Shown one piece after another: positions 7,870-39,108 of a DNA stretch of 64,000 bases (positions are counted from its first letter, which is position 1; each line of letters begins with the position of its first letter). The translations under genes were made by a program, and so were the position numbers. This DNA is from Escherichia phage EPFV3-03/2025, in the sequence record PV435126.1, one strand, 5' to 3'. The notes under the pieces were generated by a model. It was not told where the DNA came from and searched no databases. It was given only the letters and a program-made list of their open reading frames with translations.

Positions 7870-7898
7870 TTGCGTATTAACTTAAAATCTGGTAAAAT
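7870..7898 (+). promoter_or_regulatory. sigma70-like promoter with extended -10 (TTGCGT-17-TGGTAAAAT)
   Basis: -35-like TTGCGT, 17-nt spacer, TGG-TAAAAT; same architecture recurs near 13381. Confidence 0.4.
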
Positions 7899-7929
7899 AA
7901 CTATCATATTTGTTTAACCTGGAGGCACA

Positions 7930-8520
7930 ATGTTTTTATGGGAAAGGCCTAGATACCTCCCAGATATTAGATTGGAGTTACTGGCAGACATCGTTACATT
8001 TAAAAGCCCGTTTACAGGTAAGACGCAAAAAGTCACCTATGCCACTCCTAACTGGAAAGGCACTTTGACGGTTTCCAATATCAGCGAGTCTCAGTTGTTG
8101 GAGCTCAAAAGCTTTGTTGATCAGGTTTACAAAGATGGGAACATTTTTCTTATCAAGGCTTATGGGCATTCAGTTACCTCCAACGAGCCAATCGCTCTCG
8201 GACCGACTGGTAACGACGATTTTTTGAAGACGGTTGGTTGGGAGCCTAACAGGGATATAGCCAGAGCTGGGGATAAAATATCTGTCAATGATGAGTTGAA
8301 AGTGGTGACAGCCTCAGTACGAAGCGATGGTGTTGGGGCTGCTGTTATAAACATATCTCCAAGACTTAGGAAACCTATTGCCGCAGGGGATACCATGAAG
8401 ATAATAACTCAATCTCCGAAGGGTAGATTTCATATCAGAGATCTTTATAAAATTAAGCAAAAGGTTGATGCTATGCAGAAAGGTGACAATATAGTTATCA
8501 ACTTCTTTGAGGATTTCTAA
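7930..8520 (+). CDS. hypothetical structural protein
   Basis: 196-aa ORF with RBS GGAGG 6 nt upstream. Confidence 0.5.
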   Translation: MFLWERPRYLPDIRLELLADIVTFKSPFTGKTQKVTYATPNWKGTLTVSNISESQLLELKSFVDQVYKDGNIFLIKAYGHSVTSNEPIALGPTGNDDFLKTVGWEPNRDIARAGDKISVNDELKVVTASVRSDGVGAAVINISPRLRKPIAAGDTMKIITQSPKGRFHIRDLYKIKQKVDAMQKGDNIVINFFEDF

Positions 8521-13380: not shown

Positions 13381-13409
13381 TTGACTATTGTTACAAAATT
13401 TGGTAAAAT
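13381..13409 (+). promoter_or_regulatory. sigma70-like promoter with extended -10 (TTGACT-17-TGGTAAAAT)
   Basis: Consensus-like -35, 17-nt spacer, TGn-TAAAAT; about 35 nt upstream of the next start. Confidence 0.5.
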
Positions 13410-13442
13410 ACCTTGTAGAGATTTTCATACCGGAGGAGTGAC

Positions 13443-26743: not shown

Positions 26744-28521
26744 TTGAGTGGGGTCTGGTGAAAGATGCTCGCGTATTGATGGGTCAACAACTTGCTGCTG
26801 CAATAGGACCTAACGCAGTGCAGTCTGTCAAACCAGCGTGGTTCGATATCCCAATATGGTCATCTGGAACACCCGGAACTGCGGCAATCAACCCTACCAC
26901 CGGGGATCTGGAAATCTCTTGGGAGGACTTAAAGCAGGTTGGTGGCTGGGATAAGACAGGGTACCAGGTGCAATGGTGGAGATCTGACGGATCGTTAGCA
27001 GCTGATGAGTTTGTTAAGGACAATTTCTACACCATGTCCTCTGCAAAAGCACAGCAATTGTTTGGTCAGGCCACTCCGTCAACGATCACCATGTCCATGA
27101 GTTGTAAAGACAACAGGACTGGAGCTCTGGGACCAAGGGTTGCTAAAGTTTTCTCAGGTATTAAATGGAATCTCCCTGTTCAAAGTGTTTCATGGAAGCA
27201 AATAGGTGATAACAAGCTGCTGGTTACCCCAGCTTGTCAGTTCAACGCAACTCTTAACGTTGATCCTGCTGTTGCGGCAAACTCAGCTAAAGCTTCTGAC
27301 TTCTCTGTGTCTAACACTGCTATGGCAGATGTGAGGAAGATTGACACGCTGAACGCCAGAATTACCTGTAAAAACACTTATGGCACATTCCAGATCATCA
27401 ACAACTTCACAGATGCTGATTCTAAGGTAGTGAGGACAGCAAGCCAGACTCTGAGTTTAGGAACTCTGGCCTACGCGGCCCTGATCACTGAACAGTCGGC
27501 AACACTCCAAGGAGGCGGTGTAGGCAAGTCCATTGCAACACCTGTGTGGAAGCCAAATGAGTGGGTTGTGTTCGATTTGACTGTGGACTTCTCCAGCGAT
27601 AATAACTGGACATGGGTAAGGAATTGCTTGTCACAACTGATGGGTGGTCCAAGCTCCGTTAGTGATAGCCACGACTCCACTGACCCGAGTGTGTTTCAGG
27701 TGGGTAAAACTCACCCGGAGACTGGGGCACCGTTGCCTGACAGGAAGTATGCTTTGGTTTGCATCTCCAACGGCAAGGCAGATGTAACCTTCTCAGGGAC
27801 ACACACATATAACGGCACTTACAACTTCTCTAAAAAGTACAGCCTCAAGGCAGGTAACATTGTAGATGAAGTTGGTGCGTTGTATAATCCAGGTAACGGC
27901 ATAGGGATTGTAGGTGGTAAACTGCAGATGCAGGAACCTTCTATTACCCCTTCCAATGTGCCAGGAATCAGAAAGACTTGGGAAAGTAGTAATACCAACA
28001 TTGCAACAGTGGATGCTACCACAGGGCTGGTAACATTTAAAGCTACTGGGAATGTCACCATAAAGTTTGTAGTTACAGATGATGCAGGGCGCAAAACGTC
28101 TTCAACATCTTTTACTGTCAAACAGATGGCACCACAGTGGAGAATGTGGATAGGTACAGCAACAAACGGGGCATATCCTAATCCGGCAGGGACTTCTGGT
28201 ATGAAGACTTTCTCTACAAGCAAGCCGATGGAGTACGGCAGCGGTCCTAAGGTAGGGCAGATGGTGTACTTTGGTGCGTATATTCCTGAAATTATAGGGC
28301 TTCCGAGAAGTCAGATTCAGTTGCTGTTTGGGGCTGGTGTTGACGATCTTGCCACTTTCGGGTATAGAGACAACATCGAGGCTGCAAGGAGTTCAGGATG
28401 GGTAGGGTTCAGAATGGAGTCTGGAAAGGAAGGCAGGATTCTAGGGACAGCCTCTATAGGTGTTATGTTCCCTGGTGACCAGCAGTATCGTCTAGAAGCC
28501 TACGCAACATTTTCTCGTTAA
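26740..28521 (+). CDS. structural protein with bacterial Ig-like domain
   Basis: 593 aa; start overlaps previous stop (ATGA); segment NIATVDATTGLVTFKATGNVTIKFVVTDDAGRKTSS resembles a Big_2-type Ig-like domain. Confidence 0.55.
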   Translation: MIEWGLVKDARVLMGQQLAAAIGPNAVQSVKPAWFDIPIWSSGTPGTAAINPTTGDLEISWEDLKQVGGWDKTGYQVQWWRSDGSLAADEFVKDNFYTMSSAKAQQLFGQATPSTITMSMSCKDNRTGALGPRVAKVFSGIKWNLPVQSVSWKQIGDNKLLVTPACQFNATLNVDPAVAANSAKASDFSVSNTAMADVRKIDTLNARITCKNTYGTFQIINNFTDADSKVVRTASQTLSLGTLAYAALITEQSATLQGGGVGKSIATPVWKPNEWVVFDLTVDFSSDNNWTWVRNCLSQLMGGPSSVSDSHDSTDPSVFQVGKTHPETGAPLPDRKYALVCISNGKADVTFSGTHTYNGTYNFSKKYSLKAGNIVDEVGALYNPGNGIGIVGGKLQMQEPSITPSNVPGIRKTWESSNTNIATVDATTGLVTFKATGNVTIKFVVTDDAGRKTSSTSFTVKQMAPQWRMWIGTATNGAYPNPAGTSGMKTFSTSKPMEYGSGPKVGQMVYFGAYIPEIIGLPRSQIQLLFGAGVDDLATFGYRDNIEAARSSGWVGFRMESGKEGRILGTASIGVMFPGDQQYRLEAYATFSR

Positions 28522-28538
28522 CAAGGGGGTAAATAAAA

Positions 28539-28564
28539 AGGGGCCAAACGGCCCCTTTCTTTTT
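28539..28564. terminator. bidirectional rho-independent terminator (AGGGGCC-AAAC-GGCCCCT flanked by A-run and T-run)
   Basis: Perfect palindromic stem between convergent genes at the strand switch. Confidence 0.7.
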
Positions 28565-28568
28565 ATAG

Positions 28569-28772
28569 TTAGTAATACTCCCAACATGCCCCATCTTCAG
28601 ACGGCTTGACGCGCTTACCTTTATGGTCAACATAGGTATAGCCACAACCTTCACAAATAACAGGTGCTGCATAGCCGCCTTCCTTCCACTGATCCTCAGT
28701 GATCAGACCTTCCAAATCTTTGCAGTCAAAGCCAAACAACTCTTCAGAGCAATCTTTACAAAAATCAGCCAT
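28569..28772 (-). CDS. small zinc-ribbon protein
   Basis: 67 aa with two CxxC pairs (CKDC...CEGC). Confidence 0.5.
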   Translation of the reverse strand: MADFCKDCSEELFGFDCKDLEGLITEDQWKEGGYAAPVICEGCGYTYVDHKGKRVKPSEDGACWEYY

Positions 28773-28775
28773 TTC

Positions 28776-29240
28776 TCAGTCCTCGCATTTAACAAATTTT
28801 TCTATAGATCCACCAAGCACAGCTTGTTGTTTGATGGCACTTTCTTCATCATAGTGGATAGACTTATGTTCCGTACCTCCAAACTTACCTGTGTGGAAGG
28901 TGTGCACCCAAATCTCTTTAGGAAGGGATTTATTCTCTTCCTCCACCAACTCCCACATACCCCACAAGTGATCTGTGATATCTCTGATGAAATATCCCTC
29001 GCCGAGGTTTGTATTCACACTATAAGCTGATTCGTGATCTCCGCAAATATAACGGAAGGCAGTGTACTCTTTACCTGGTGTGAAGTGAGTATCCATTAGT
29101 ATGGCTGTTAAAGAATAAGGGTCTCGAAAGCCCAAGAACTTTAGTTTAACAATTTCGACATCTACCTCTGCAAGATTATCCATGACGATCTCCTCTGTTT
29201 GGTTGGTGAGAATTATATATAGATCTGGTGTTGGTGTCAA
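28776..29240 (-). CDS. hypothetical protein
   Basis: 154-aa ORF in the minus-strand cassette. Confidence 0.5.
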   Translation of the reverse strand: MTPTPDLYIILTNQTEEIVMDNLAEVDVEIVKLKFLGFRDPYSLTAILMDTHFTPGKEYTAFRYICGDHESAYSVNTNLGEGYFIRDITDHLWGMWELVEEENKSLPKEIWVHTFHTGKFGGTEHKSIHYDEESAIKQQAVLGGSIEKFVKCED

Positions 29241-29344
29241 GCTTAATTTTAAGAGATCTGAGAGGGTATTTTATTCAGGGAGGCAATCGCACAGGGTTGG
29301 GAAATTTATGAAGGCACAGGCCTCGTTTGAGGCCTTAAAATAGA

Positions 29345-29728
29345 TTACGACGATACCTTGACGGGTTTATCTGATAAGGCTGGGAAGCCTAAAGCAGCAC
29401 CTAGACCGCCATACGCTATCCACCATTGAAGTTCATCGTGACACCATTTTCCAATCAAGAAGGTGCTGTAGTAGCGGGTCAGTATCTTGGCATAGGCTTT
29501 AGGATCTGCATCCTCAGGTATGATAATGCTTGGTGGGCGTTTGTTATGACCACAGCAGCAGTTTAAAGTCTTCAATCCTGCTGCCCATAGACTCATGACA
29601 GGCTTAGCCATGCACTTATCAAGGCACACACGTTTTTTGCCGTCACGGAGCTTTTTAGGCACATCAACGATAACATTTTGATGCTTGGCACCTTTCACTT
29701 TCCAATTATAGGATTTACACTTGCACAT
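29345..29728 (-). CDS. hypothetical Cys-rich protein
   Basis: 127 aa with CKCK and NCCCGH motifs; possible metal-binding protein. Confidence 0.45.
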   Translation of the reverse strand: MCKCKSYNWKVKGAKHQNVIVDVPKKLRDGKKRVCLDKCMAKPVMSLWAAGLKTLNCCCGHNKRPPSIIIPEDADPKAYAKILTRYYSTFLIGKWCHDELQWWIAYGGLGAALGFPALSDKPVKVSS

Positions 29729-29946
29729 TTAATCAGTCCCCATTTAGAAATCCACACTATTACGTTTTTGAGGCATACCTTACTTAAAGTCTTTATCACC
29801 TGTTACGATTGCACGAATCCACTCATTGTGATGCGTAATGGCGGCAAGGTGTAACATAATGTGGTGATTGTCATTGCCAAGCACGGCGTGATAAGTTTTA
29901 GCAACACCCTGATATAACTTCCACATCAAGTAATGGTATCTTCGTT

Positions 29947-30426
29947 TCATGGCTCTTTCTCCGGTTCAGGATCTGGGTAATCTTCAATAATAAAGGGCCA
30001 TCCGTTACGCTTAGCGTCAGACTTATACTCAATTTCCTTCATTGCAAACTCTAACTGATTCTTGGCCGGAATGCAAGCTGGAGAATCATCAACCCAGATG
30101 TCTGGGTAGATATCAAACTGCGCCAGATAAGCGGCCTTCTGAACGCCTCCAGTATAAAACACTCCAACATCGAGCTCCTTGCGCCAGTATTCAATGTCCA
30201 CATTATCTTGAGTGATGAACCGAAAAGTCACAAGGTAGACTGTCCACCCTTCCTTCTTCAGGTCCTTAATCAAGCGGGAGAAGATGAAAGGGCTCGCATT
30301 AAACGTTCCATCAAAGTCAATGGCAATGATATGCGTGCCGTGGCGAGTCTCATATGGATTGCTCGTGGTAAGATTGCTGTAGTTAAAAGGCACTTCTTCC
30401 CCGCAGTAGCTGTAGTCCATATTCAC
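29947..30426 (-). CDS. HAD-superfamily phosphatase-like protein
   Basis: 159 aa; IIAIDFDGTF matches HAD motif I (DxDGT); WVDDSP resembles motif IV. Confidence 0.55.
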   Translation of the reverse strand: MNMDYSYCGEEVPFNYSNLTTSNPYETRHGTHIIAIDFDGTFNASPFIFSRLIKDLKKEGWTVYLVTFRFITQDNVDIEYWRKELDVGVFYTGGVQKAAYLAQFDIYPDIWVDDSPACIPAKNQLEFAMKEIEYKSDAKRNGWPFIIEDYPDPEPEKEP

Positions 30427-30698
30427 ACCTTCTCGTTGATAAATTTACGGGCGGTTTGGTGAGTTGTTTCCGCTGTCTTTAGAATAATATCGATCTTATT
30501 GTCAAGATCATTCATCTCAGCAGTTAATTCAGGGATCTCTCCAGCATGCATGGTGAAATCATACATAGACATGCCTATAATCTCATTGATGCGGCGGTTG
30601 CATTCTGCAGCACGCTGGTTCATTTTCCAAGCTAATACCAAAGCCTCCTGCGTGGCTTCTAGTGCAAAGTCTAATACATCTGCCTCTTCTTTCGTCAT
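30423..30698 (-). CDS. hypothetical protein
   Basis: 91-aa ORF, overlaps neighbour by 4 nt. Confidence 0.45.
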   Translation of the reverse strand: MTKEEADVLDFALEATQEALVLAWKMNQRAAECNRRINEIIGMSMYDFTMHAGEIPELTAEMNDLDNKIDIILKTAETTHQTARKFINEKV

Positions 30699-30753
30699 CT
30701 CAGTCTCTCCTGTTTATTGTTGATAGGTGTATGAATGCCTTATAACTAACTCT

Positions 30754-31320
30754 TTATTCAAATTGCAATAGCAAGTCCACCACCGCGCTAGGCCTGTCAA
30801 CAAACTCCCCAGGTCCGCATGCCCACAGAGGGTATCCGTCCACATACCTCCATATCCAACCTGAAGTGTGGAGCTCAAGAAGGGCAGTACCATCCTTACT
30901 GTTAACAACTCTTTCCCACAGTGTTGGGCAGCGAAGCTTTAGGATAGGATCCCCACCCTTATACCCGTCCATGTAGATACCCATTGCAAAGTTCAGCATC
31001 ATCTTTTTGTGCACTGACCTCTTACTGAGGGTGCTCATCACTTCCTCCTTGTGGATGTTTGTAAGCTTCTCCTTGGCTACCTGCAGATCGTTGCAGCCAT
31101 TGTTCAGAAGATCTTCCAGACACTTTACCCTAAGGTCGTGGATATCTTTGTCGTGCACCGTTGGTACAGGGTCGTAGCGATATAGCACTGTTGATACAAG
31201 GTTGCTAGGGTGTGGGTCTGACAGCAGTCCATAACCCCAATACTCTTCTGTATCTGAAAGGACAAGACACCCAATATCTCTGTCAAGCTTTCCTGTGTTG
31301 TAAGCCACATTGACCGCCAT
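30754..31320 (-). CDS. hypothetical protein
   Basis: 188-aa ORF. Confidence 0.5.
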   Translation of the reverse strand: MAVNVAYNTGKLDRDIGCLVLSDTEEYWGYGLLSDPHPSNLVSTVLYRYDPVPTVHDKDIHDLRVKCLEDLLNNGCNDLQVAKEKLTNIHKEEVMSTLSKRSVHKKMMLNFAMGIYMDGYKGGDPILKLRCPTLWERVVNSKDGTALLELHTSGWIWRYVDGYPLWACGPGEFVDRPSAVVDLLLQFE

Positions 31321-31322
31321 GA

Positions 31323-31568
31323 TTATAGCTCCACTAACAAAGTGCTTTCAAAATGCCTCTCATGCAGACCGCTATAAGGAACCACTTCCACAACACCGTC
31401 GCGGATATATGGAGTCATCATGGCAACATAATCACCGAATGGGTGGGCATTATCACTAACCACAACCACATGCTGCCCCTCCTTGGCAGAGTGCCAGATA
31501 GATCTGCATTTCATCATGTGTTCGAGAGCGCCAGGTAAAATCTTGTTACGTTCTTTACGGGTCTTCAT
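31323..31568 (-). CDS. hypothetical protein
   Basis: 81-aa ORF. Confidence 0.4.
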   Translation of the reverse strand: MKTRKERNKILPGALEHMMKCRSIWHSAKEGQHVVVVSDNAHPFGDYVAMMTPYIRDGVVEVVPYSGLHERHFESTLLVEL

Positions 31569-32014
31569 AACAGGTATAGCTCCTTATGAAAGTGGGCTTT
31601 CAATTTCTCACCGAGAAACTTCTTGATACCTTCCTCTAAGGTGTTTTCGATGTAGTCCAGCTTAACTGCTTCGATGGACATATCATAGATCGCCAGCTCT
31701 AAGCTGTCAAGTCCCATCATAGCATGAACCATAAGATTTTCATCTTCAGATACATTCAGGGGGCTTCCTATAACATCTGGAGGCAGAATAGTTTCCCAAT
31801 TATTCTGGGTGGTAGCTCCCCCGCCATCCACCTTACGTCGCAGCTCGAAGGTGTTCTTAGTGTAAAACACTTCATAAGAAACGATACGACTATCGCTCTC
31901 GTAATAAACGAAGTTAAGGTAGGAGCCGAGCCGTAGTCGGCAAACTTCTACCCCAAACCATTGTTTCTTATAAGAATTCAGGCTAATGCTGTCGCATTCA
32001 CGTTTGCTCAACAC
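31565..32014 (-). CDS. hypothetical protein
   Basis: 149-aa ORF. Confidence 0.5.
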   Translation of the reverse strand: MLSKRECDSISLNSYKKQWFGVEVCRLRLGSYLNFVYYESDSRIVSYEVFYTKNTFELRRKVDGGGATTQNNWETILPPDVIGSPLNVSEDENLMVHAMMGLDSLELAIYDMSIEAVKLDYIENTLEEGIKKFLGEKLKAHFHKELYLL

Positions 32015-32029
32015 GGCTCTCTCCTTTTG

Positions 32030-32263
32030 TTAATCTTCGTAAATCAGGATCTCTGCTTTAGGTTTTCGTGCTTTCAGGTCCAGCTCTATCCAGTGCACCA
32101 TAGCTGTTTCAAGAAAAACAGCCTGGATGCATCCGTCTTCAGCGTGTCCTACCAACATAACAAGATCTTCACCTTCGTCATCTTCATCACGAACATACAA
32201 AATCTCTCCGGACTCAAAGTCTTTTACAACCTGATTATTAGATAATTTACGAATTTTTGCCAT
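32030..32263 (-). CDS. hypothetical acidic protein
   Basis: 77-aa ORF. Confidence 0.45.
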   Translation of the reverse strand: MAKIRKLSNNQVVKDFESGEILYVRDEDDEGEDLVMLVGHAEDGCIQAVFLETAMVHWIELDLKARKPKAEILIYED

Positions 32264-32264
32264 A

Positions 32265-32528
32265 TCAGAAACCCTCTAAAAAGCTCTTGTAGAAAATAAT
32301 CTCAGTATCTACACCAGTCACGATCTTGTCGTTCCTGATTTCATCTGTAAGATAGGTGTCAAAACGCAGAACCTGTGTGGTGTTGTCACACATCCACTCG
32401 GCTGTGACCATGGCAAAAATCTTAGCATCTTCATTGTCCGGTGTGAATGTTACCACCTCACCGCATTTAAATTTTTCGATAGGCTGCGTGTTAGCTTTCG
32501 GTTCTGCAATGGTGATTTTTGTGGTCAT
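32265..32528 (-). CDS. hypothetical protein
   Basis: 87-aa ORF. Confidence 0.45.
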   Translation of the reverse strand: MTTKITIAEPKANTQPIEKFKCGEVVTFTPDNEDAKIFAMVTAEWMCDNTTQVLRFDTYLTDEIRNDKIVTGVDTEIIFYKSFLEGF

Positions 32529-32794
32529 TACTCTTCCTCCATAGTTTCACCAAATACTTCGATACGAGCGTCAAGCTCTGTTGCTTTCAGTTCTCCAACA
32601 AAATCTTTCAGTTCTTTCTCGTCAAGATCATATGCCCACACACAAGATGAGCATGCAGATTTCACGATCAGCAGTGTAGATACACGGCCTGACTCTGTAA
32701 TCATGCTCACAATGGTTCCTACAGGGAACGTGTTGATAGCTTTTTTAACTGGGCGTTCAGCTTTAATTACCACTTCTGTTGCCATAAATAACAT
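32528..32794 (-). CDS. hypothetical protein
   Basis: 88-aa ORF. Confidence 0.45.
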   Translation of the reverse strand: MLFMATEVVIKAERPVKKAINTFPVGTIVSMITESGRVSTLLIVKSACSSCVWAYDLDEKELKDFVGELKATELDARIEVFGETMEEE

Positions 32795-32800
32795 CCTCTC

Positions 32801-34282
32801 TTATTTGGCGTACTCGATTAATTCTACAGTTTTCCCAAAGCTTGGGATATAATTTTTATTATACCCTTCGGTGAGAACCCATAAAGTATCGTACTTTTTC
32901 CACTTGTTGTCAACAGCCTTTTGTTCAAAGTTATGCTCAAAGTATAGGTCGGTCAGGACGATGACATCTTTTGCATTTGGTATGTTAGCGTCCAGATACT
33001 CGAACACGCAAGCGGCTGTTGTTCCCCATGTTGAGTGGACCTCATAGTTGATCATCTCGTCGATGTTCCCCCGAGTGTATACTTTAACCTCTCCAACCTC
33101 GGTTGACCAGCAGAACATCGTAACCTTGAACTCTTTATACAGATTGCACAACCCAGTGATCTCATTGAACATTTTCTTTAAAGTTCTTTGAGAGATCGAT
33201 CCAGAAACGTCTAGAGCCACCACAATATCTATAGTGTTTTCCGGATTACGGCCCGGAACAACAACGTGCTGATTCTTGTTTATAGCCCCAACTTTTCGCA
33301 TTGTGCTGGTCAAAGACCCAGATCGGCGACCGGGTTTTCTGTAGGTTAGTTCAGCCTTTCGTTTAGACAGCATACGTTGCTTAATGATGTCTATATAATT
33401 GATTACAGGCTTACCTCTGTTCTTGACAAACTCACGCACAGCCTCAGGGCAACGACCTCCGGAAGCCTGCATTGCTGCTTCCAACATGTCACCAGAGTCC
33501 TGCATGGCTTGATCTTTATCAGATTGGCTGATCACTGGTTGTGGCTGATCATACCCCATCGCCTTTCCAAGATCATCACTAGTGCCACCGTTACCACTCA
33601 TGTGATCATCGGTTTGTCGTTTATCTCCTTGAGAGTTCTCGCCTTTACCGTTCTTACTTTTACCACTATTCTGATCTCTTTGCTTATCAAGAACCGCATA
33701 GACGTTCTCAGCAATCCATCCATGGAACCTCATGTCACAGTAGCAACTAGCTAAGAAGCCAAAAGGCTTACCTTTTACGAACTCAGTGCTTTTCCCCTTC
33801 GGGAAGAAAACACAAGGAGGCTTGCTAAAGTCAACCACAAGACCTGTGTTGATAACGTGATCACAAGCAATATTGAACAGTTCCGGCTCAAAGCTTTTAC
33901 CACGGACCAAATGATCACAGATAATATGCCCCACCTCATGTGACAGAAGAAAGGCCACCTCTTTCACAGATTTTGGGGAATAGAAAACCTCAGCCATCTC
34001 AAACTGCTTGTCAGTCAGAGATGCTTTAAGAATGGTTTTACGCTCATCTGCCAGCCCCATAATGAACTCAGGGCTGTAGTAGATGCGTTTATGGTCTGTT
34101 GCCATAGTGGAGCACCATGTGTGGTTTTCTACGAACTGCAACCCTGACAACAGTGTGCCATAAAACGGCAGCTTTTCAAGAAGATACATGCGTGCTGCCT
34201 GCAGCATTCGCAAGGCGTCATCTTTTTGTGCGGCAATGATTTCTGAACTTCTGCTATCCATTAAAACTCCAGAAGGGGCCAA
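32801..34282 (-). CDS. vWA-domain protein with N-terminal HExxH metallopeptidase-like motif
   Basis: 493 aa; HEVGHIICDH (HExxH) in the N-terminal half; C-terminal VVALDVSGSIS is a MIDAS-type DxSxS motif. True start is probably the internal Met (MDSRSS, near 34260) because the track N-terminus overlaps a hairpin. Confidence 0.65.
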   Translation of the reverse strand: MAPSGVLMDSRSSEIIAAQKDDALRMLQAARMYLLEKLPFYGTLLSGLQFVENHTWCSTMATDHKRIYYSPEFIMGLADERKTILKASLTDKQFEMAEVFYSPKSVKEVAFLLSHEVGHIICDHLVRGKSFEPELFNIACDHVINTGLVVDFSKPPCVFFPKGKSTEFVKGKPFGFLASCYCDMRFHGWIAENVYAVLDKQRDQNSGKSKNGKGENSQGDKRQTDDHMSGNGGTSDDLGKAMGYDQPQPVISQSDKDQAMQDSGDMLEAAMQASGGRCPEAVREFVKNRGKPVINYIDIIKQRMLSKRKAELTYRKPGRRSGSLTSTMRKVGAINKNQHVVVPGRNPENTIDIVVALDVSGSISQRTLKKMFNEITGLCNLYKEFKVTMFCWSTEVGEVKVYTRGNIDEMINYEVHSTWGTTAACVFEYLDANIPNAKDVIVLTDLYFEHNFEQKAVDNKWKKYDTLWVLTEGYNKNYIPSFGKTVELIEYAK

Positions 34283-34294
34283 TGGCCCCTGTCA

Positions 34295-35350
34295 TTATTT
34301 AACGTGCTTGAAAATACCAGCCAACTCGGTCATTGTCATGCGAGTGGTCTTCATAAGGTCTGTCATAGCCTTCTCCATGATTGGAGATACTACCATAAAG
34401 TTACCCTTGGTGAAACCTTTATTCCAGTCGGTCACTAATAGTGGTTTAAGTCCGGCCCCGAGACGCTCACCAGTCAAAGCACAACATTTTCGGATGTATG
34501 TGCTCTTAAATTGACTGAATGACAGATCAACTTTCATACCTGCATCGTAGAACGTCTGGCAATAGAAAGTGTAAGCTTTGGCAATCTCAACATCGTCAGG
34601 CAGTGCAGGAACCTCTTCTGTAAGCTCTTCTTCGACCCCTTTAGGCTCTTTTTCCTCTTCGTAAGTCTGTTGCATCATCTCTTCAATCTCCTCTGCTACA
34701 GGCTCGTTTACAATGTCAGAAATGTGCTTGTTTGCTCCACGATTAGCCATGAAGTTTTTAAAATCCTGCATTGGTGACATATCTTCCTCCCATTCTTCGT
34801 CAAAGAGTGCTAGTTTATCCTCTTCCGTTCCATATTGCAAGATGAAATCTTCAAAAGTGTAATCACCTTTCAATTTCTCCATACGCTCTTCGCTCAGGTG
34901 GAGCATCATCTGCTGGACAATTTTTCGATCAGTTTTGTCTTTAATCAAGACTGCGGTCTTTTTATCTACCAGGCAGTCCTTTAGAGAGTTGCATCTCAAT
35001 CCCACCACACAACAATTATCAACAGCATAAGGACCTTCATCATCTATCCGCTCTAGGGAGGGGTAGAAAGGATTTCCCAGTCCGTTTTCATCTGTGTGCA
35101 TGTCGAAAGGTATAAGGGTATAGTCGCACACCCCCTCTCCTAAAAGTTTTTTACCAAATAGGAGGTATTCTTCCCATGACAGGTTGAACTCTATATCTCG
35201 TTTCCGTGCATTATTTTGTTTGCGTCTGTATTTTTTGAGCAGGCGCTCTAACTCTTCTGGTGTATAATATTTTTCAAGATTCATGAGTTGTCTCTTGTGC
35301 TCTGTAGGTGAAGAAATCTTATCAAGTGCCTCAACAGATGTCAACCTCAA
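34295..35350 (-). CDS. hypothetical protein with HNH-like (His-Me finger) motif and acidic central region
   Basis: 351 aa; segment CDYT...SLERIDDEGPYAVDNCCVVGLRCNSLK resembles SLDRID-type HNH nucleases; a degenerate second copy (CALTGERL...KGFTKGNFMVV) near the C-terminus; Glu-rich middle. Confidence 0.45.
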   Translation of the reverse strand: MRLTSVEALDKISSPTEHKRQLMNLEKYYTPEELERLLKKYRRKQNNARKRDIEFNLSWEEYLLFGKKLLGEGVCDYTLIPFDMHTDENGLGNPFYPSLERIDDEGPYAVDNCCVVGLRCNSLKDCLVDKKTAVLIKDKTDRKIVQQMMLHLSEERMEKLKGDYTFEDFILQYGTEEDKLALFDEEWEEDMSPMQDFKNFMANRGANKHISDIVNEPVAEEIEEMMQQTYEEEKEPKGVEEELTEEVPALPDDVEIAKAYTFYCQTFYDAGMKVDLSFSQFKSTYIRKCCALTGERLGAGLKPLLVTDWNKGFTKGNFMVVSPIMEKAMTDLMKTTRMTMTELAGIFKHVK

Positions 35351-35357
35351 AAACGTG

Positions 35358-35386
35358 TTGACTTTACCCTAAATCCACGATATAGT
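35358..35386 (+). promoter_or_regulatory. sigma70-like promoter (TTGACT-17-TATAGT)
   Basis: In the 76-bp divergent intergenic region upstream of 35427. Confidence 0.5.
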
Positions 35387-35426
35387 TCACCCATTCGAAA
35401 GAAAACGAACACAGGAGTACTTAATC

Positions 35427-36326
35427 ATGGCAAATCTTAACAGCTTTAGCACTCGATGGAAACAAGATATCACAACCAATCTCTCTGCAGGCGATATCCT
35501 TTCTGCAATTTACGAGGCTTTGGATGATAAAGCTACTTCAAAATCGGTTTGTACCAACCCGTTAATTCCTATGGTAATGAAGGTGATTGAGCGTAGGTTG
35601 GTATCCGGATCTGATAAGTGGACATATCTGGATAATGGAGGCCACACTTACTCCAACGGCTATGTCGATATAAAAGTAGAATATGCGGTATCATATCGCC
35701 GGAGCGGCTCTGTAACTTTCAACTTCTCTGGTGGTTTCCGATCTCTGGCAACTTCACCTTTTGTTTCCTCAGAGGAGAAGTTTGAACTTCCGTTCCTTTG
35801 GATGATGGCTAACGCGACAGGCAAAACCCCTGTAAGCATTCGCGTAAAATACAACTACAACGGATCTAGTAAGATCTATGCTGAGAGTGTCTCAGCAAGT
35901 TTTTATTTTGTGATGGGGGATGGAATCCTCAAACATATAAAGATGTGCGATATGCATGATGTTATAAATGAAGTGACTGATAAGAATGTTCTGGTGAAGG
36001 ATCTCAACAATTTTTATACACCAGGGGACTATTACGTCAACCGTCCACTGTGCATCTTTAATGCTGCACACCCTTTAGGTGAGTATTTGATTGCCAATAG
36101 TGATATTGCCAATAACCGCTTCGAGGTAGCAAGAGTACAGAATGAGGTGTTGACATCTTGCAAGAGCGGTGATAAGTTTACCGAAGAAGAGATGGGTGTT
36201 TTAGAGATGATGGGATATAAGTGTAGCCTTTGGGTAGATGAGGTGTTTAATGACGGCATCTATGGACAGGATATTTACCCGTTAAAGAAGTATACTGATT
36301 CCAGTTTAATTTACGCGGGGATTTGA
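35427..36326 (+). CDS. hypothetical protein
   Basis: 299-aa ORF, first gene of the + strand early block. Confidence 0.55.
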   Translation: MANLNSFSTRWKQDITTNLSAGDILSAIYEALDDKATSKSVCTNPLIPMVMKVIERRLVSGSDKWTYLDNGGHTYSNGYVDIKVEYAVSYRRSGSVTFNFSGGFRSLATSPFVSSEEKFELPFLWMMANATGKTPVSIRVKYNYNGSSKIYAESVSASFYFVMGDGILKHIKMCDMHDVINEVTDKNVLVKDLNNFYTPGDYYVNRPLCIFNAAHPLGEYLIANSDIANNRFEVARVQNEVLTSCKSGDKFTEEEMGVLEMMGYKCSLWVDEVFNDGIYGQDIYPLKKYTDSSLIYAGI

Positions 36327-36601
36327 CTATGATGAAGGCATGTGGTAGTGTATACTATGTGGGTGAAAATGTTCAGGCAGACAGTGTGTGGAAATCCATT
36401 AAGTCCACCACCGATGATGCCTTCTTGAGCGGGTTATGTTTCCCCAATCCCGGAGACATTCTCCCTTACCCTGGGGATTTTGTTGTCAACAAGACGGACG
36501 GTTATACCGTGTGCCTGATGGTAGAAAAAATCTTTTTAGACACTAGACACAATCACCGTCTTGTGTTAAAATTTCAAGAATGTAAAATGACAGTTGCCTA
36601 A
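36323..36601 (+). CDS. hypothetical protein
   Basis: 92-aa ORF overlapping previous stop. Confidence 0.4.
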   Translation: MTMMKACGSVYYVGENVQADSVWKSIKSTTDDAFLSGLCFPNPGDILPYPGDFVVNKTDGYTVCLMVEKIFLDTRHNHRLVLKFQECKMTVA

Positions 36602-37654: not shown

Positions 37655-37924
37655 ATGTTATACCAGCAGTACGAACTTCGTGCAGAAAAAGAATTAAATT
37701 TTGACAAAGATATTCACAGATATTATTATGGGAAAGTTAGAGGGCAAGCAAGAAAGTGTACTCCAACACTCTTTCATGCCAGCAGACGACTAGCTCCAGA
37801 AGAGGCAACAGCAGAAAGGGTTGCATATGGCTGGAGAGTTGCGTATGATATTGACAGATCCGATGTGATGTCTGTTTTGGAAAACTTTGAAAACACTTAC
37901 ACACAAGTAGAGGACTTTTACTAA
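37655..37924 (+). CDS. hypothetical protein
   Basis: 89-aa ORF. Confidence 0.45.
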   Translation: MLYQQYELRAEKELNFDKDIHRYYYGKVRGQARKCTPTLFHASRRLAPEEATAERVAYGWRVAYDIDRSDVMSVLENFENTYTQVEDFY

Positions 37925-39108
37925 TGTCAAGAAACGTATTCGAAAGTGGTCAAATCACTGTCCGCGAGTTGCCAGCTATTATTCAATTTGCCCAGCGTCA
38001 TAACCGATCTGTCCTGATTTTAGGACCGATGGGTGTGGGGAAGAGCCAGGTGATGAAGCAGATTGCTGATAATATGTTCGGTGAGCGAGATGACAACCTG
38101 GTTGACGTGCGGCTGTCAGATAAAGATCCTGCTGACTTGTCTGGACTGCCTATCCCTGTAGAGGCAGATGGAACTACACGCACAGTGTTTGCAATTCCAG
38201 AATTTTGGCCTGCAGACTCGGACTGGAGCGGAATTATCTTTCTGGATGAGCTTACTCATGCAGATAACTACCTGCAGAAGGTTGCAATGCAAATTATGCT
38301 CGACCACAAGTGCGGCACCTATGCATTTCCTAAGGGCTCTGTTTTTGTAGCTGCAGGTAACCGTGCTACAGATGGTGCTGTTCTTTCAGCGCTCGAAGCT
38401 CCTCTGGCTAACCGCTTTATCATTGTAGAAGTTACAAGCAATGCAGAGGTATTTATTGAGGACTACGCCTTCCTTAATGGTGTGCATTCCTCTGTAATTG
38501 GATATCTGAAAAGAGTTCCATCAGCTATCGATAATTATGAGGCTATGGCTGAGATTAATTGTCCATCTTTTGCCACACCGCGATCTTGGGTTGCTGCATC
38601 TGACATCCTGCACGATTTTGACAGCGGCATTATTTCTGACGCTATGGCTCGTGTTCTTCTGCAAGGTGCTATTGGTCACACTGCAGCGGTAGAAATCTGG
38701 ACCTACCACACCAAGAAACGAAACTTGCCAGAAATCGGTCGGATTATGGCAGGGGGTTGCAAAGAATATGTAGGTCCTAAGCAGCCAGATATCTTGTGGA
38801 TTCTTGGGTCTGAAGGCTGTATTGCTATTCGGAATATGATGGAAAATGCAAGTGTCTCAGATGAAGATCTTGTTAGCTGCGTGGCAAACTTCCTTGATTT
38901 CCTTTGGGAAAATTTCAAGGATGAGAACCGAGACTTTGTATTCTCAGTCTTTATGGCGATGATGAAACCCAACGCCCTAGGAAATGCCTTACTTATTGGT
39001 AAAGGTCGGGACAAGATCGTTGCTCAGCTGATCAAAGCATACCCGAACCTGATGAAGATTGTAAAAGAGTTTGGTGAAGAGTTTAGCGCCATTTTAGCTA
39101 AAGCTTGA
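37924..39108 (+). CDS. MoxR-like AAA+ ATPase
   Basis: 394 aa; Walker A GPMGVGKS, Walker B IIFLDELTHA, sensor-like AAGNRATDG and PLANRF; architecture as in MoxR/RavA/AAA_5. Confidence 0.7.
   Translation: MSRNVFESGQITVRELPAIIQFAQRHNRSVLILGPMGVGKSQVMKQIADNMFGERDDNLVDVRLSDKDPADLSGLPIPVEADGTTRTVFAIPEFWPADSDWSGIIFLDELTHADNYLQKVAMQIMLDHKCGTYAFPKGSVFVAAGNRATDGAVLSALEAPLANRFIIVEVTSNAEVFIEDYAFLNGVHSSVIGYLKRVPSAIDNYEAMAEINCPSFATPRSWVAASDILHDFDSGIISDAMARVLLQGAIGHTAAVEIWTYHTKKRNLPEIGRIMAGGCKEYVGPKQPDILWILGSEGCIAIRNMMENASVSDEDLVSCVANFLDFLWENFKDENRDFVFSVFMAMMKPNALGNALLIGKGRDKIVAQLIKAYPNLMKIVKEFGEEFSAILAKA

Follow-up and report, generated by a model that had tools for sequence, protein, structure and literature searches.

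The closest described counterpart of the minus-strand gene block at 28569-35284 of Escherichia phage EPFV3-03/2025 (a 64,000-nucleotide stretch, PV435126.1, hereafter the window) is found in phage rV5, whose genome was split into four transcription units, one of them 'genes 11-26' (Kropinski et al., 2013, PMC3606486). Table S4 of that study lists the divergent pair P010/P011, P020, P025 and t026/t027. In its Table S3 most of gp11-26 carry no function and none has the 'MS evidence' label given to virion proteins; gp11 was already called a probable Srd homologue. T4 Srd was first postulated as a sigma-factor decoy. It binds the N-terminal half of RNase E and stimulates host messenger RNA decay (Qi et al., 2015, as cited in PMC13232886). 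In phage N4, gp24/gp25 are a homologous MoxR-vWA pair, part of the core genome and transcribed as middle genes, and a MoxR plus peptidase-vWA pair of jumbo phages was noted by Iyer et al. (2021), who proposed a role in virion assembly.

By gene content and order, the block is ascribed to the rV5 unit and reads as an ordinary, already described rV5-like transcription unit, neither new nor a mobile cassette. With a probability of roughly 0.75, it is the leftward arm of a divergent early or middle unit driven by the host RNA polymerase, equivalent to rV5 genes 11-26. A sequence-only reading of the same DNA had presented it as an accessory island between a structural and an early module; that description was replaced, as the 'early module' itself appears to be the other arm of the unit.

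Identity and extent of the block

Positions 28000-36000 were searched against the phage collection with megablast, and 120 phage records matched, 112 of them with at least 80% query coverage at 92-96% identity. Nearly all of the well-covered records were rV5-like Escherichia phages of the genus Vequintavirus, and the open reading frames (ORFs) of the window were collinear with the annotations of VB-EcoM-WM and JES2013; the matches identify the window as a Vequintavirus (rV5-like) genome. Among the database matches, 16 GenBank entries carry the name 'Campylobacter phage' (MG0656xx; host given as Campylobacter jejuni); they were 92-93% identical to positions 28000-36000 over the full length, and look like mislabelled or contaminating coliphage.

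The minus-strand gene run is uninterrupted between a plus-strand immunoglobulin-like tail-fibre gene (end 28521) and a plus-strand gene (start 35427). The guanine-plus-cytosine (GC) content of the block (0.41-0.46) is the same as that of the flanks, and the plus-strand GC skew goes negative over the block, mirroring the flanks, a flip of sign that fits the direction of transcription. Fourteen genes were counted (g01 to g14, numbered from the left), in place of the thirteen reported earlier. The block given as 28569-35350 is real, with its upstream end corrected to about 35284. The mechanical ORF list over-extends two ORFs, g14 and g13. The former starts at ATG 35284, as annotated in relatives; TTG 35350, the start of a 351-residue ORF, was set aside because the extension contains g14's own promoter and relatives use the ATG. 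The latter starts at ATG 34261, with a GGAG ribosome-binding site, and not at TTG 34282.

Among all 14 block proteins Pfam matched g13 only, NCBIfam gave nothing for the eight block proteins submitted to it, and PHROGs scans of all 14 returned function labels for g09, g13 and g14 only, two of the three doubtful. The earlier description of most genes as small and lacking a recognisable function was borne out.

Promoters, hairpins and terminator

The elements located in and beside the block were as follows.

35316-35344, minus strand: leftward sigma-70-type promoter, TTGACA-N17-TAAGAT with extended -10 TG; rV5 P011 (Table S4)
35358-35386, plus strand: rightward sigma-70-type promoter, TTGACT-N17-TATAGT; rV5 P010; outside the minus-strand block
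34274-34290, minus strand: GC-rich hairpin AGGGGCC-AUU-GGCCCCU, placed after the g14 stop and ahead of the ribosome-binding site of g13
29318-29335, minus strand: hairpin AGGCCUC-AAAC-GAGGCCU directly past the g03 stop (-13.1 kcal/mol, z = -3.8)
29212-29240, minus strand: sigma-70 promoter with perfect 12/12 consensus, TTGACA-N17-TATAAT, for g02 and g01; rV5 P025
28537-28558, either strand: intrinsic terminator for both directions, where the block and the tail-fibre gene converge; rV5 t026/t027

The sequences of the rV5 Table S4 elements match the window. The promoters at 35316-35344 and 35358-35386 stand back to back, and four genus members share, without change, the -35 of the first and both hexamers of the second. 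TTGACA-N17-TANNNT turned up 17 times in the window where 0.95 would be expected, with three minus-strand copies in the block (29240, 31710 and 35344). The perfect-consensus promoter lies in the 161-nt spacer between g03 and g02 (29184-29344), downstream of the 29335-29318 hairpin and upstream of g02; its hexamers are conserved across the genus, and the hairpin is invariant in three genus members.

The rV5 late motif TGGTAAAATA has just two exact copies in the window, both in the structural block (7890-7899 and 13401-13410, plus strand) and each a short way upstream of a structural gene, with starts at 7930 and 13443. A minus-strand site at 31682-31710 (11/12 sigma-70 consensus, TTGACA-N17-TATGAT) falls inside the coding sequence of g09, some 110 nt ahead of g08; it may act as an internal promoter and is absent from the rV5 Table S4 list. 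No RNA family was found by Rfam in 28000-36500 at E <= 1.

Terminators at 28539 and 34273 had been taken as the bounds of a cassette. The first corresponds to the 28537-28558 hairpin, which is strong in either orientation, at -19.6 kcal/mol (z = -4.0) and -18.7 kcal/mol (z = -2.8). The second is the 34274-34290 hairpin, which lies inside the block between g14 and g13 and is therefore no cassette boundary. It is kept in four genus members. A sister-clade locus (L009, about 61-65% protein identity) has a different GC hairpin (GGGGGC-TTT-GCCCCC) at the same place before the vWA ribosome-binding site, and a different hairpin at the matching position suggests a conserved RNA-level role; the element is a candidate leaky terminator or messenger RNA processing or stability element.

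On the reading as a divergent early or middle unit, transcription would start at the sigma-70 promoter 35344-35316, back to back with the rightward promoter of the MoxR/rIIA arm. The first product would be the Srd-like g14, expected from its homology to T4 Srd to act in host shutoff. The polymerase would then pass the 34274-34290 hairpin, which probably lowers or processes read-through, and would continue into g13, g12-g10, g09, g08, g07, g06, g05, g04 and g03. Past the second hairpin, the perfect-consensus promoter would drive g02 and the Zn-ribbon gene g01, and transcripts would end at the bidirectional terminator common to the tail-fibre gene.

Several points weigh against this scheme. A literature search for a Vequintavirinae transcriptome or transcript timing found none for any member. 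Sigma-70-like promoters occur genome-wide in rV5 according to its authors (PMC3606486), so that a sigma-70 promoter alone is no proof of early expression. Ten of the 14 proteins are without a functional lead, and for g14 the homology to T4 Srd is limited to about the N-terminal half, with T4 not reached directly by tblastn. The 34274-34290 hairpin has a weak U tract and a folding energy unremarkable against shuffles (z = -1.2). There is also some turnover, with g01 common to unrelated phage families and two extra genes in phage FV3.

The Srd-like protein g14

34295-35284, minus strand: g14, 329 residues, Srd-like, rV5 gp11, first gene after the sigma-70 promoter

g14 was aligned with T4 Srd (NP_049634) by hhalign (Prob 97%, E 1e-10, 134 columns) and blastp (E 9e-8), and the motifs K-R-x-x-x-F-x-L, C-x-Y-[ST], S-L-E-R-[IF]-D and G-Y-x-x-x-N are common to both. 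PHROGs matches tie g14 to Srd and 'decoy of sigma70' families (PHROG 1400, E 2e-10; PHROG 4592, E 3e-12) and to endonuclease VII-type families; Pfam, NCBIfam and PDB sequences (single sequence and small profiles) gave no useful match. At its N-terminus the protein carries a beta-beta-alpha-Me domain lacking the His; an acidic, helical linker follows, and the C-terminal 100 residues are a degenerate repeat of that domain (hhalign Prob 88-90%, E ~2e-6). A first hhalign comparison of the two domains gave no match, and significance was reached only once T4 Srd had been added. The C-terminal copy (residues ~250-300) also aligns to the T4 Srd N-terminal domain (blastp E 5e-4).

At the catalytic-His position g14 reads S76-L-E78-R79-I80-D, and a conserved His is present in none of 11 relatives nor in T4 Srd. 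N90 and N99 are invariant and D81 nearly so; of the cysteines only C53 is invariant and C92 nearly so, and the Cys4 site is absent. These alignments place g14 in the T4 Srd family, with an HNH / His-Me finger fold that lacks the catalytic His. The 'HNH-like protein' of the sequence-only reading was thus right as to fold, and the gene product is better named a T4 Srd homologue. PacI uses Tyr in place of the canonical His, and loss of the His is thus no proof of inactivity. By analogy with T4 Srd, g14 most likely helps host shutoff, for example via RNase E or sigma factors.

The peptidase-vWA protein g13 and its predicted MoxR partner

32801-34261, minus strand: g13, 486 residues, HExxH metallopeptidase fused to a vWA domain with a metal-ion-dependent adhesion site (MIDAS), rV5 gp12/13; from Pfam
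37924-39108, plus strand: MoxR-type AAA+ ATPase, rV5 gp4, on the other arm of the divergent unit

g13 matched Pfam DUF2201_N (4.4e-28; 99.1 bits, cut-off 23.2) and DUF2201 (3.6e-11; 43.7 bits, cut-off 26.4). The HExxH residues (H108/E109/H112) and the MIDAS DxSxS residues (D351/S353/S355) are invariant across four genera, in agreement with the vWA/HExxH protein recognised earlier. Homologues were found in 670 phage records, N4-like and jumbo phages included; in relatives they are annotated 'HNH endonuclease' or 'anti-sigma factor', probably wrong labels. A literature search for experimental work with phage DUF2201 proteins found nothing.

Gene order was recorded for 80 IMG/VR loci with a g13 relative and three reference loci, and MoxR was detected in 62. 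In about 60 of these, the MoxR gene immediately precedes vWA on the same strand, with starts mostly about 1-1.4 kb apart and up to 3.7 kb in a few. It lies on the strand opposite to vWA, across the divergent promoter, only in Vequintavirus, sister-clade and Seunavirus-like loci. In the window MoxR is neither on the strand of g13 nor adjacent to it, the genes being 3.7 kb apart, and PVP-SE1 (Seunavirus) has the same divergent layout with an annotated promoter. With the pair adjacent on one strand in about 60 loci and split here, the strand switch is most simply read as the breakpoint of an old inversion, by which an ancestral MoxR-to-vWA pair was divided, and not as the edge of an inserted island; the MoxR ATPase is the predicted partner of g13. 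With the pair split in this way, the two 'modules' distinguished earlier would be two arms of one unit.

An unlikely alternative is that g13, MoxR and g09 form a virion-assembly chaperone or maturation-protease system, tied to the structural module and not to host takeover. It takes up the proposal of Iyer et al. (2021) for jumbo-phage MoxR and peptidase-vWA, with the MoxR-vWA of Acidianus two-tailed virus, in tail development, as the analogy; the HExxH and MIDAS residues of g13 are intact, g09 carries the PHROG and RefSeq label 'tail protein', and the block adjoins tail-fibre genes. However, the 'MS evidence' label of Table S3 is missing from all of rV5 gp11-26, the promoters are of sigma-70 type with no exact copy of the rV5 late motif in the block, and the N4 homologues gp24/gp25 are middle transcripts. 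No experimental basis is visible for the 'tail protein' label, and PHROG/RefSeq naming also calls the vWA protein 'HNH endonuclease'. Since an early-made chaperone could act on late proteins, a role in assembly overlaps for g13 with an early or middle divergent unit, and the two are not exclusive.

Tandem paralogues and g09

32528-32794, minus strand: g12, 88 residues (85 in relatives, from the Met at residue 4), first tandem paralogue; ratio of nonsynonymous to synonymous substitution rates (dN/dS) about 0.01 or less
32265-32528, minus strand: g11, 87 residues, second tandem paralogue; dN/dS 0.02-0.10
32030-32263, minus strand: g10, 77 residues, third tandem paralogue; dN/dS 0.02-0.06
31565-32014, minus strand: g09, 149 residues, rV5 gp17, PHROG 6790 'tail protein'; from a blastp cluster

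The comparison of g12 with g10/g11 was significant in hhalign (Prob 92%, E 6e-7), as was that of g10 with g11 in blastp (E 1e-4). The sister clade has a single g12-like copy at the same place (L009, 11464-11715; blastp against g12, E 1e-10). The alignments indicate that g10-g12 are diverged tandem paralogues expanded from one copy. PVP-SE1 gp217 was considered as a g12 homologue and rejected.

The g09 family was defined as a single-linkage blastp cluster of 11 downstream ORFs, which were then aligned. It is the ORF after vWA in three Seunavirus-like, five Certrevirus-like and two sister-clade loci. Because hhalign found no relationship between the family and the small post-vWA ORFs of other phage clades, the link is limited to Vequintavirinae-like loci. 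In relatives' records g09 is called 'tail protein' or 'holin', probably wrongly. Word-indexed homologue searches for g09, and likewise for g05, returned almost exclusively near-identical genus members.

A further reading in two parts is quite unlikely. In the first, MoxR, g13 and g09, made early, with g10-g12 inserted between g13 and g09, would carry out host-directed proteolysis or remodelling, for example by removing a defence or another factor of the host, and would not chaperone virion assembly, the expansion then reflecting an arms race. In the second, the entire Srd family would be a His-less PacI-like fold still cutting nucleic acid or recruiting RNase E via a nuclease-derived RNA-binding surface.

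Conservation and the question of an accessory island

All ten small ORFs occur together in 111 genus records, and the sole variation seen is a two-gene insertion in FV3. PVP-SE1 (Seunavirus) shares only g14, g13, g09 and g05, on one arm, with MoxR on the other. Two IMG/VR sister-clade contigs (vWA 61% identical) share g04-g09, g13, g14 and a single g12-like gene, and Certrevirus shares only MoxR, vWA and g09. The gene set is layered, with four genes shared with Seunavirus, five more with the sister clade, and five seen only in the genus among close relatives. Beyond the subfamily, the sampled hits included only g01, in Felix O1-like and T5-like phages, and the last 45 residues of g02. A repeat search gave no flanking repeats at the block, only short ones at chance level, and Pfam and PHROGs scans gave no integrase or transposase among the block proteins.

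We consider it quite improbable that the block is a horizontally acquired, exchangeable accessory island whose small genes serve mainly anti-defence or host-range functions. Small ORFans do make up most of it, five genes (g01, g02, g03, g10 and g11) belong to the genus-only layer, and only 4 of the 14 reach Seunavirus. Exchange would also agree with g01, which is 55-70% identical in T5 and Felix O1-like phages and has unusually low synonymous divergence, and with the two extra FV3 genes in the g03/g02 spacer; the lineage-specific tandem expansion of g10-g12 is a pattern frequent in conflict genes. Nevertheless, presence or absence did not vary among close relatives, 111-112 of about 120 genus records carrying the block practically in full. 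Its GC content is ordinary with a skew that agrees with the direction of transcription, there are neither flanking repeats nor mobility genes, the backbone (g14, g13, g09 and g05) is syntenic across genera, and at 35.3 kb the block ends in a promoter region common to both arms, which splits an otherwise adjacent gene pair. No anti-defence homologue was found in Pfam, PHROGs or NCBIfam, no anti-defence library being used. Recent horizontal acquisition of the whole block was rejected on its ordinary GC content, near-universal presence in the genus and MoxR-vWA synteny.

Several points of the sequence-only interpretation held: one gene encodes a homologue of a known host-takeover protein, T4 Srd, another encodes a HAD-type phosphatase, and related genera do differ in part of their gene content. 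The framing as an accessory island was dropped. That interpretation was to fall if every gene proved to be a conserved core gene with a known function; this holds by half, the genes being conserved in the genus and most of them lacking an assigned function. Chance ORFs were rejected, since all 14 ORFs are under purifying selection (dN/dS 0.01-0.32, dS up to 0.56, against two relatives) and therefore none is a chance ORF.

HAD-type phosphatase and remaining genes

29947-30426, minus strand: g05, rV5 gp21, 157-159 residues depending on the start (30420 or 30426), minimal HAD-type phosphatase with no cap; from motifs and fold

Across 46 diverse relatives of g05, D37, D39 and K97 are invariant and T41, T67, D113 and D114 at least 90% conserved. 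The most conserved positions of the family are exactly the four HAD motifs (I, DxDxT; II, T/S; III, K; IV, DD), and in the structural model (predicted local distance difference test score, pLDDT, 62) they lie at strand ends of a Rossmann-like core. Neither g05 nor the 46 relatives matched Pfam or NCBIfam HAD models. PDB sequence searches with g05, single and small profile, gave nothing useful; the best full-length PDB profile match was the hypothetical protein 2obb (E 0.007). An exhaustive HMMER search returned 926 representatives at E <= 1e-3, mostly of 90-140 residues. Motifs and modelled fold support the assignment of g05 as a HAD-type phosphatase, as read earlier, with no Pfam model behind it; the family is a modest new lead as an uncharacterised minimal HAD family. 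The label 'polynucleotide kinase' is wrong because the kinase domain is absent.

31323-31568, minus strand: g08, 81 residues, ORFan common to the sister clade
30754-31320, minus strand: g07, 188 residues, ORFan common to the sister clade
30423-30698, minus strand: g06, 91 residues, ORFan common to the sister clade
29780-29950, minus strand: g04, 56 residues, highest dN/dS of the set (0.2-0.3)
29345-29728, minus strand: g03, 127 residues, Cys-rich, seen only in the genus
28776-29183, minus strand: g02, 135 residues, C-terminal 45 residues common to some siphoviruses
28569-28772, minus strand: g01, 67 residues, CxxC...CxxC Zn-ribbon, common to T5 (T5p060) and Felix O1-like phages

The Cys-rich and Zn-ribbon proteins named in the sequence-only reading correspond to g03 and g01, and the four Cys of the g01 CxxC...CxxC motif are invariant in T5p060 and the Felix O1-like homologue. 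Compared with two relatives, g01 has 98% nucleotide identity and a dS of about 0-0.03, against 0.1-0.56 in neighbouring genes, which could reflect recent exchange or nucleotide-level constraint. The labels used in relatives, 'methyltransferase TYW3' for g03 and 'alpha-aminoadipate carrier protein' for g01, are probably wrong. In FV3, the two extra genes lie between the g03 and g02 homologues (1152-1972 of its locus, L088) and are similar to RB49 and Phi1 hypothetical proteins; the g03/g02 spacer may be an insertion hot spot. Beyond the block, the 299-residue plus-strand neighbour is labelled 'alpha 1-3 fucosyltransferase' in relatives, with no Pfam support.

Comparison with described systems

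As a genomic feature the block carries little weight, being a standard published unit of more than 100 sequenced rV5-like phages. It had been called a natural place to look for new systems; the unit was published for rV5 in 2013, and what remains are modest new leads, namely the Srd-like fold and its duplication, the split MoxR-vWA pair, the g10-g12 expansion and the minimal HAD family. Misleading labels were corrected for the vWA protein ('HNH endonuclease'), the HAD protein ('polynucleotide kinase') and g09 ('tail protein' or 'holin'). T4 Srd and its relatives receive a predicted structural assignment as a His-Me finger without the His, present twice in the rV5 version. The MoxR-vWA pair broken up by the strand switch is core in N4-like phages and is present also in Vequintavirinae and jumbo phages, and the whole offers testable leads on host takeover in rV5-like therapeutic phages.

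With rV5 genes 11-26 the block has an identical gene set and order at about 92-93% nucleotide identity, and the divergent P010/P011, the internal P025 and the bidirectional t026/t027 are all matched in the window. The rV5 annotation has 16 ORFs, with the vWA gene split into gp12/gp13 and a doubtful overlapping gp23, whereas the window has 14 supported genes. With other MoxR/vWA pairs (N4 gp24-gp25, jumbo phages, E. coli RavA-ViaA) it shares a DUF2201_N peptidase plus DUF2201 vWA protein and a MoxR encoded nearby, and g13 homologues are core genes of N4-like phages. It differs in that the two genes stand on opposite strands across a divergent promoter and are not adjacent on one strand, and in that an ORF family specific to Vequintavirinae (g09) follows the vWA gene.

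g05 resembles cap-less HAD phosphatases (2pr7, KdsC, MDP-1) in being minimal and without a cap, and differs in matching no Pfam HAD model; unlike T4 polynucleotide kinase, whose phosphatase domain is the source of some annotations, it has no kinase domain. For g01, identity to T5p060 and Felix O1 p023/p024 is 55-62% in the alignment and reaches about 70% with tblastn; these stand in another context, the tRNA region of T5 and the early region of Felix O1-like phages. The beta-beta-alpha-Me, PacI-like fold of g14 is that of PacI and of HNH / His-Me finger nucleases (McrA, Gme HNH, T4 endonuclease VII), from which g14 is set apart by S-L-E-R-I-D at the catalytic-His motif and by having no conserved Cys4 zinc site. 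With T4 Srd it shares homology over the N-terminal ~140 residues; g14 is longer (329 against 248 residues) and has in addition an acidic linker and the degenerate second copy of the N-terminal domain.

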